Assembly (NCBI GenBank): GCA_964432405.1
Contig: CAYSNH010000001.1
Span: 30,001 to 62,000, forward strand
Origin: an uncultured Candidatus Saccharibacteria bacterium
Lineage (GTDB): Bacteria; Patescibacteriota; Minisyncoccia; UBA6257; UBA11618
Length of the DNA stretch: 32,000 nt
Direction: 5' to 3'
A model generated the notes under the pieces. It searched no databases, was not told the DNA's origin, and saw nothing but the letters and a program-made list of their open reading frames with translations. Below are positions 24,678 through 26,165 of the stretch, in pieces; the stretch's first letter is position 1; each line of letters starts with the position of its first letter. A program made the position numbers and the translations under genes.

Positions 24678-26165
<1,488 letters not shown>

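Follow-up and report, generated by a model that had tools for sequence, protein, structure and literature searches.

A 16S rRNA gene with an A/U-only sequence in place of the anti-Shine-Dalgarno core, among genes lacking Shine-Dalgarno motifs, in a bacterium of predicted Parcubacteria type

The whole stretch of DNA analysed here (32,000 nt, referred to as the window) carries on its minus strand a complete bacterial-type 16S rRNA gene, enclosed by a leader–trailer stem and followed directly by a response-regulator gene (Table 1). The match to the Rfam covariance model is full length and scores 1420 bits where the gathering score is 50; all helices are present, and helix 45 with its GGAA loop is followed by a single-stranded tail of ~13 nt, as in bacterial small-subunit rRNAs. 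At the 3′ end, Infernal aligned the consensus GAUcACCUCCUUu with GAACAAUUAAUUA at high posterior probability and with zero gaps, giving 8/13 identities, and all four C's of the anti-Shine-Dalgarno core CCUCC are replaced by A or U. A first-pass annotation had read this tail as collinear with the canonical one, with AUUAA for CCUCC, every C of the core changed, eight of 13 identities and an intact helix 45, and the alignment agrees throughout, with nine base pairs formed around the GGAA loop. A search of the rRNA strand from 24000 to 26400 found no CCTCC. Since the core consists of A and U only, no Shine-Dalgarno (SD) helix is possible, and with the rRNA partner of SD pairing gone, every gene must start another way.

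Table 1. Features of the 16S rRNA locus and of the start regions discussed in the text (coordinates are window positions).
Feature	Coordinates	Strand	Evidence
Complete bacterial-type 16S rRNA gene, 1487 nt	24679..26165	(-)	Rfam RF00177, 1420 bits, model positions 1-1533
Helix 45, intact, 9 bp: ACGUGUAGC / GGAA loop / GCUGUGCGU	24693..24714	(-)	Sequence; paired in Infernal alignment
13-nt 3′ tail GAACAAUUAAUUA, collinear with E. coli 1530-1542 (GAUCACCUCCUUA)	24679..24691	(-)	Gap-free Infernal alignment; same in 12 other contigs
AUUAA in place of the anti-SD core CCUCC (E. coli 1535-1539)	24682..24686	(-)	Alignment; A/T only in 74 Patescibacteria tails lacking the anti-SD
Trailer arm of leader–trailer processing stem	24600..24634	(-)	Leader–trailer cofold with 27 contiguous bp and another 5
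Leader arm of that stem, ahead of the 16S 5′ end	26219..26253	(-)	Cofold
Trailer hairpin AUCGAG[GAGCCUCAAGU]CUCGAU in the 3′ external spacer	24636..24658	(-)	Conserved with compensatory changes; relative loci L017, L019, L071, L098
Response-regulator gene directly downstream of 16S, without SD (GUUAUACUUGUAACUAU AUG)	24213..24593	(-)	Pfam PF00072; sequence
UUAAUUGUU abutting the pilin ATG, longest (9 nt) tail complement in the data set	24153..24161	(-)	Judged a chance match
UAAUUAA, 11-17 nt upstream of the ftsZ ATG, palindromic AT word	10953..10959	(-)	Sequence
UAAUUAA, 5-11 nt upstream of the lytic transglycosylase (SLT_2) ATG	29134..29140	(-)	Sequence
TATACT resembling a -10 box, 7-12 nt before the pth ATG; candidate promoter for a leaderless or very-short-leader mRNA	15673..15678	(+)	Spacing as enriched in relatives

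By analogy, the leader–trailer helix would represent the usual processing-stem architecture of rRNA precursors, of the RNase III type. The trailer arm of this stem implies that 78 nt or more of precursor follow the tail, so that the mature terminus could be shorter or longer than 13 nt. The hairpin in the trailer has the form AUCGAG[GAGCCnnnnGU]CUCGAU; its stem reads AUCGUG/CACGAU in one relative (L071) and GUCGAG/UUCGAC in another (L098), and the loop retains a GAGCC/GGAACC motif in relatives, so that the element may be a processing or protein-binding signal. The ATG of the response-regulator gene (24593) lies 7 nt beyond the trailer arm; the gene may be transcribed together with the rRNA precursor and be freed, nearly leaderless, when the stem is cleaved. 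A layout of 16S followed by a protein gene also occurs in the relative locus L017. No tRNA was found anywhere in the window, and neither a tRNA nor a 23S gene follows the 16S. Elsewhere in the window, directly after rpmE, a release factor gene (27074-27826, plus strand; Pfam PCRF and RF-1) encodes 250 aa; typical RF1 and RF2 proteins, at ~360 aa, are much longer. GC skew is negative and uniform, at about -0.25 in nearly every 2-kb bin of positions 1-32000, and the minus strand carries most of the genes, which together place the window inside one replichore arm with a strong strand bias.

By its best 16S matches, the source organism is a member of the Patescibacteria (CPR) of Parcubacteria/Paceibacteria type. 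Among the matches listed, the nearest 16S sequences share 75-83% identity and all belong to Patescibacteria/Paceibacterota metagenome-assembled genomes, and the best full-length matches, at 80-83%, indicate a distinct lineage inside that radiation. GTDB species representatives were scanned for 16S ends of the form GAWCA followed by five non-C bases, and 120 matches were listed; these include neither the source organism nor its closest GTDB relatives, and the clade distribution they give is a sample, not a census. At least 73 are Patescibacteria/Parcubacteria 16S genes with A/U-only tails, all with the helix-45 signature of the window, CACGNGUAGCGGAAGCUG; the tails among those listed include GGAUCAAUUAAAC, GGAACAAUUAAAU, GGAUCAUUUAUUU and GGAUCAUUUUUUU. 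The lineages represented among the matches listed are Staskawicz-, Nealson-, Wolfe-, Lipton- and Harrisonbacteria and Paceibacterota, along with the cultured Minisyncoccus archaeiphilus PMX.108 and Ca. Microsyncoccus archaeolyticus.

Loss of the anti-SD in this group has been described before. In the available text of Tsurumaki et al. 2022 (RNA 28:1041; PMC9297842), only 48% of Parcubacteria have CCUCCU at the 3′ end of the 16S; the lineages without the motif overlap the group that lacks uL1, and SD helices are inferred not to form. The organism studied here has a 16S of Patescibacteria/Parcubacteria affiliation without CCUCCU at its 3′ end, and on these two grounds it is to be placed with those Parcubacteria; rplA, the uL1 gene, was not encountered in the ~48 kb of genome covered, too small a share to indicate its absence. 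The loss itself is therefore a clade-wide trait already published for Parcubacteria (PMC9297842), which lowers its novelty, and the present instance is no discovery. That paper, in its available part, gives the absence of the motif, and not the sequence that replaces it, the SD status of the mRNAs or the initiation route; the present organism differs from the sampled relatives lacking the anti-SD in sharing only 75-83% 16S identity with them, among the matches listed.

The sequence that replaces the motif could be compared in 74 tails, namely the 73 listed loci and the window, with position 0 set at the G matching E. coli G1530. The 74 tails contain no indels. Positions 5-13 hold A or T only, except for a C at position 11 in 23 tails, and U occupies positions 6 and 7 in 71/74; G, although permitted by the query at positions 5-9, is missing from all 370 cells there, the statistics for these five positions being partly conditioned because the query demanded non-C there, and the sequences being phylogenetically related as well. 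Information content is at least 0.8 bit at positions 5-13, drops to ~0.3 bit at position 14 and reaches ~0.1 bit by position 23, from which point the spacer has 25-45% G+C. An A/U-constrained tail that would end near the canonical position accounts for this pattern better than free drift does, and the strict A/U composition suggests that selection has favoured a tail without pairing partners. Alternatively, the tail may be vestigial, having drifted to A/T by mutational bias after the loss of SD pairing, or being trimmed in the mature rRNA, with no role left to it. The genome is AT-rich (about 37% GC), variants such as ATTAA, TTTAT and TTTTT occur among the listed relatives, and the mature rRNA may end elsewhere than the tail does, all of which would suit such decay. 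Against it stand the sharp change of composition at position 13-14, the near absence of G and C from positions 10-13, which the query left unconstrained, next to a downstream spacer of 25-45% G+C, the two near-invariant U's, the canonical length, and 100% identity of tail and trailer between species that share only 79-93% identity in flanking genes. These points argue for constraint, short of proof given the relatedness of the sequences; on balance, we regard a vestigial tail as distinctly unlikely. A strict A/U tail of canonical length looks new.

Start regions were examined for 48 distinct called genes from the window and its flanks, covering ~48 kb of the genome. An SD-like word was defined as at least 4 nt of AGGAGGT at positions -20 to -4, and frequencies were compared with those in internal coding windows. 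Such words occur upstream of 14.6% of the genes vs 22.7% internally, whereas the same code applied to 49 kb of E. coli returned 75% upstream vs 10.5% internally, and 60% upstream with the naive gene caller used for the relatives; the positive control for these statistics, E. coli, thus comes from outside the CPR. The 310 genes of 63 related loci likewise gave 15.5% upstream vs 15.9% internally. Mean duplex energies to the canonical tail tell the same story, at -3.2 kcal/mol upstream vs -5.1 kcal/mol internally in this genome and -7.2 kcal/mol upstream vs -4.8 kcal/mol internally in E. coli. SD sites are thus absent upstream of the genes examined and, if anything, avoided, and SD-led initiation of the canonical kind finds no footing in these 48 genes, whose upstream regions show no enrichment of GGAGG-like motifs. 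Good SD-like strings stand before two genes, AAGGAG before a 71-aa ORF and UAGGAG before csrA, which is the rate expected by chance. A minority class of SD-led genes elsewhere in the genome is possible, the survey having covered 48 genes in ~48 kb. The first-pass annotation had stated that the inspected start codons lack a GGAGG-like motif and that the organism appears to initiate translation without canonical SD pairing; all six upstream strings and all three tail-complement strings that it quoted are present in the sequence, and both statements hold, since the intact tail without CCUCC and the missing SD motifs together imply SD-independent initiation. As a relocated anti-SD, the only nearby CCUC was considered and rejected: it sits in the loop of the trailer hairpin, in precursor spacer 30-33 nt past the tail, and the question is moot because the mRNAs show no SD enrichment.

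A different kind of pairing might have taken over, in which motifs like UAAUUAAUUG ahead of start codons pair with the A/U tail (3′-AUUAAUUAACAAG-5′) and take the place of GGAGG:CCUCC. At first sight the counts lean this way. A Watson-Crick complement of at least 6 nt to the tail lies within -25 to -1 of 15/48 genes, compared with 18% +/- 5% in dinucleotide shuffles (p about 0.01) and 12.5% in a control region at -60 to -36; the pilin start offers a 9-nt match, and AATTAA is nominally the top upstream hexamer, in 9/48 genes. All matches but two, however, are palindromic AT words containing a stop codon: the matching words AATTAA, TAATTA, ATTAAT and TTAATT are palindromic or nearly so and contain TAA, and the pilin string alone reaches the non-palindromic part of the tail complement. 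Orientation controls perform equally well (15 genes for the tail itself, 17 for its reverse and 17 for the parallel complement), the strand-specific words TTGTTC and ATTGTT occur in 0 genes and 1 gene, and AATTAA with its 9 genes barely tops AATAAA, TAAAAA, TAAATA and TATTAA with 8 each. The matches are scattered from -6 to -23, and duplex energies to the tail are on a par with those of shuffles (-2.06 vs -1.89 +/- 0.22) and too weak to position a ribosome. Nor do the relatives show such pairing: with their own tails, 15.8% of 310 genes from 63 loci have a match vs 18% in shuffles (p=0.9), a tail-swap test gave a complementarity of 4.37 nt for a locus's own tail vs 4.47 nt for other tails, TTAATTG, TAATTGA and AATTGAT occur in 0/310 of their genes, and TTGATC in 1/310. 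Longest complement, duplex energy, shuffles, decoy tails, orientation, hexamers, relatives and tail-swap were all negative or non-specific; a variant SD:anti-SD pair finds neither orientation specificity in this genome nor covariation with the tail among relatives, and according to Amin et al., none of 128 taxa without the canonical anti-SD has a variant SD to match its variant anti-SD (PMC6107228). The first-pass annotation had left the choice between a re-tuned pairing and chance; with controls equal, p=0.9 in relatives and no covariation, its second option stands and its first is dropped as very improbable. Chance in AT-rich, stop-codon-rich intergenic DNA is the better answer.

The locus itself is highly reproducible. 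Independent assemblies were retrieved by way of the response-regulator gene just downstream of the 16S, and helix 45, tail, trailer and the junction with that gene are identical in nine independent contigs (five from JGI, two from Logan and two from ENA samples); a single 229-kb JGI contig differs from the window by 8 substitutions over 21.5 kb, with zero in the rRNA. When metagenomes were scanned with a 50-nt probe specific to the lineage, four contigs matched, three of which represent a sister species with 98.8-99.2% identity in the 16S, 79-93% in flanking genes, and a tail and trailer identical to those of the window. Among the nine assemblies and the probe-scan contigs, none that carries this 16S body has another tail, and none has CCUCC. 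Comparison with the 16S genes of relatives had been proposed in the first-pass annotation as a check on the tail, and the three sister-species contigs, like all nine assemblies, returned the same tail; a corrected assembly bearing CCUCC, which the annotation had named as the counter-evidence to look for, was not encountered among the contigs with this 16S. This agreement means that the tail is not an artefact, and the full-length gene, the reproducible tail and the leader–trailer stem together indicate a transcribed, processed and functional 16S copy. That the sequence is an assembly or chimera error or a decaying pseudogene, with the working ribosome using another 16S that has CCUCC, is exceedingly improbable: metagenome assembly of 16S genes is hard, the genome is seen in part only (~48 kb) and the 16S is unlinked from a 23S, but tail, trailer and gene junction are identical in nine assemblies and three sister-species contigs with no differing tail, the gene is full length with all its helices and enclosed by a 27-bp processing stem, like tails occur in at least 73 other Patescibacteria species, including the complete genome of a cultured strain, and the mRNAs are without SD motifs.

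Across the 48 genes, A makes up 46-54% at most of positions -11 to -3, dipping at -7 and -2, and G and C are under-represented; the relatives show the same A-rich, G/C-poor trend. The minimum free energy of 40-nt segments is -2.6 to -3.3 kcal/mol around starts vs about -5 kcal/mol inside genes (p=0.002; in relatives, p=7e-20). Genes are also packed very tightly, which favours termination-reinitiation: 30/41 same-strand neighbour pairs lie no more than 10 nt apart, with overlap or abutment in 14 pairs and a median gap of 1 nt. In the 63 listed loci of relatives, promoter-like boxes concentrate close to start codons. There, 21/47 TATAAT occurrences within -60 to -6 begin at -15 to -11, and TAHAAT has 36 occurrences in the -15 to -11 bin with a mode at -12; many boxes are of the extended -10 type, TGnTATAAT (e.g. 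TGcTATAAT, TGtTATAAT), 12-15 nt before ATG, a spacing seen in about 10-15% of the relatives' genes as called by a naive caller. With a -10 box 12-15 nt before ATG, transcription would begin on the ATG or no more than a few nucleotides away from it, which predicts leaderless or near-leaderless mRNAs. The organism itself has 3-4 candidate boxes in all, among them the one at pth (Table 1), TGTATAAT before rpe (outside the window) and a TATACT before the response-regulator gene. A literature search on leaderless translation or SD use in CPR, Patescibacteria and Parcubacteria found nothing beyond PMC9297842, and no paper describing such -10 spacing for CPR; leaderless-type promoter spacing across the clade looks new.

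The best explanation for these observations, and one we think likely, is that a single functional 16S of a clade lacking the anti-SD serves SD-free genes through SD-independent start selection. The tail would have been kept at its canonical ~13 nt while its CCUCC core went to A/U only, making an SD helix impossible, and three routes could then lead ribosomes to start codons: guidance by the A-rich, G/C-poor and weakly structured start regions themselves, coupled or re-initiated translation within the very tightly packed operons, and, for operon-first genes, leaderless or very-short-leader mRNAs. If the tail is retained, the mature 16S would end at or near ...AAUUAAUUA-3′. Such a tail is probably kept for functions other than mRNA pairing; it includes a GA(U/A)CA segment, which in model bacteria is the recognition site for Era and 30S maturation. 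We infer the initiation routes, the mature 3′ end and the tail function from the sequence features described above.

A further reading of the same tail goes beyond this explanation. The A/U tail may be no relic but the selected mark of a clade-wide initiation system, in which the 3′ end of the 30S subunit is maintained in a non-pairing state or recognised by a protein, and starts are reached via leaderless or ultra-short-leader mRNAs from extended -10 promoters together with termination-reinitiation in operons. The fixed canonical length, the near-invariant UU at 1536-1537, the lack of G and the sharp boundary to the spacer are the marks that speak for it. We put this forward tentatively, as a doubtful possibility; if true, it would amount to a lineage-level bacterial shift to mitochondrion-like or archaeon-like initiation, not described for CPR.

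SD-independent start selection by a 16S without CCUCC has several partial parallels. Reliance on leaderless mRNAs is found in Actinomycetota, Deinococcota, archaea and mitochondria, which resemble the listed relatives with their -10 boxes 12-15 nt before ATG; here, unlike in those leaderless users, the trait is predicted from box spacing, concerns a subset of genes and amounts to 3-4 candidates in this organism. Baez et al. in 2019 and Jha et al. in 2021 reportedly found that the anti-SD of Bacteroidota is sequestered on the ribosome and that start regions there are A-rich and 'Kozak-like'. The start regions described here are similarly A-rich, G-poor and unstructured, with no SD enrichment, and by this likeness of composition the initiation mode may be Bacteroidota-like. 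Most Bacteroidota, however, keep CCUCC but hide it, whereas here CCUCC itself is gone, and because it is absent and not sequestered, the organism is not a member of the Bacteroidota type. Another parallel is offered by the taxa without an anti-SD compiled in Lim 2012 and Amin 2018, first 15 and then 128, which are also without SD motifs and never have a matching variant SD; they include some Flavobacteriia, Blattabacterium, Mycoplasma, Carsonella and Hodgkinia (PMC6107228). Like the present organism they have a 13-nt tail without CCUCCU, no upstream SD and no compensating motif complementary to the tail, but they are sporadic or host-restricted and belong to other phyla, while the tail described here is uniformly A/U across a very large environmental clade. 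The Parcubacteria of Tsurumaki et al. (PMC9297842) are the group with which the organism belongs, sharing with the window, in the available text of that paper, a CPR/Parcubacteria-type 16S without a 3′ CCUCCU.

SD:anti-SD pairing is often taken as the default of bacterial initiation, and the window offers a clean, reproducible counterexample from a very large environmental clade. This bears on gene callers and RBS-based start prediction, on the expression of CPR genes in model hosts and on genetic tools for cultured Patescibacteria; since the cultured strain PMX.108 has the same kind of tail, the tail of an SD-free bacterial ribosome is open to experiment. The parts that might merit follow-up are the strict A/U tail of canonical length and the clade-wide leaderless-type promoter spacing.

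Several minor observations were made in passing. The 71-aa ORF with AAGGAG 7 nt ahead of its ATG (26508-26723, plus strand) is divergent from the 16S. Two adjacent genes of the CsrA family, one of them the gene with UAGGAG, lie ~6.4-7 kb past the right edge of the window (contig L138, 821-1009 and 1143-1493); CsrA usually works through its binding to GGA motifs within SD regions. Six of the 8 substitutions that separate the window from the 229-kb JGI contig fall inside 170 bp (18747-18913), within a 290-aa ORF of unknown function (18088-18960) in the type IV pilus cluster, which suggests a local hypervariable or recombining patch.

The tail also resembles the 3′ end of eukaryotic 18S rRNA (GGAUCAUUA-3′), in which GGAUCA is followed by A/U only and there is no anti-SD, and many of the relatives read GGAUCAUUUAUUU. 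The eukaryotic tail is shorter, as if CCUCC had been deleted, whereas here the length is kept, and the likeness is convergent, not homologous beyond the common GAUCA. Among the 120 matches listed from the GTDB scan, ~40 are themselves eukaryotic 18S 3′ ends (...GGAAGGAUCAUUA) in 'bacterial' genomes, including L023, L036, L037, L040, L049, L055, L062, L089, L111-L113, L120 and ~25 others. Many of these share one ITS-like continuation (AAAGAAATTTAATAATTTTGAAAATGG...), and it looks as if eukaryotic (yeast-like) DNA has repeatedly contaminated public bacterial assemblies.
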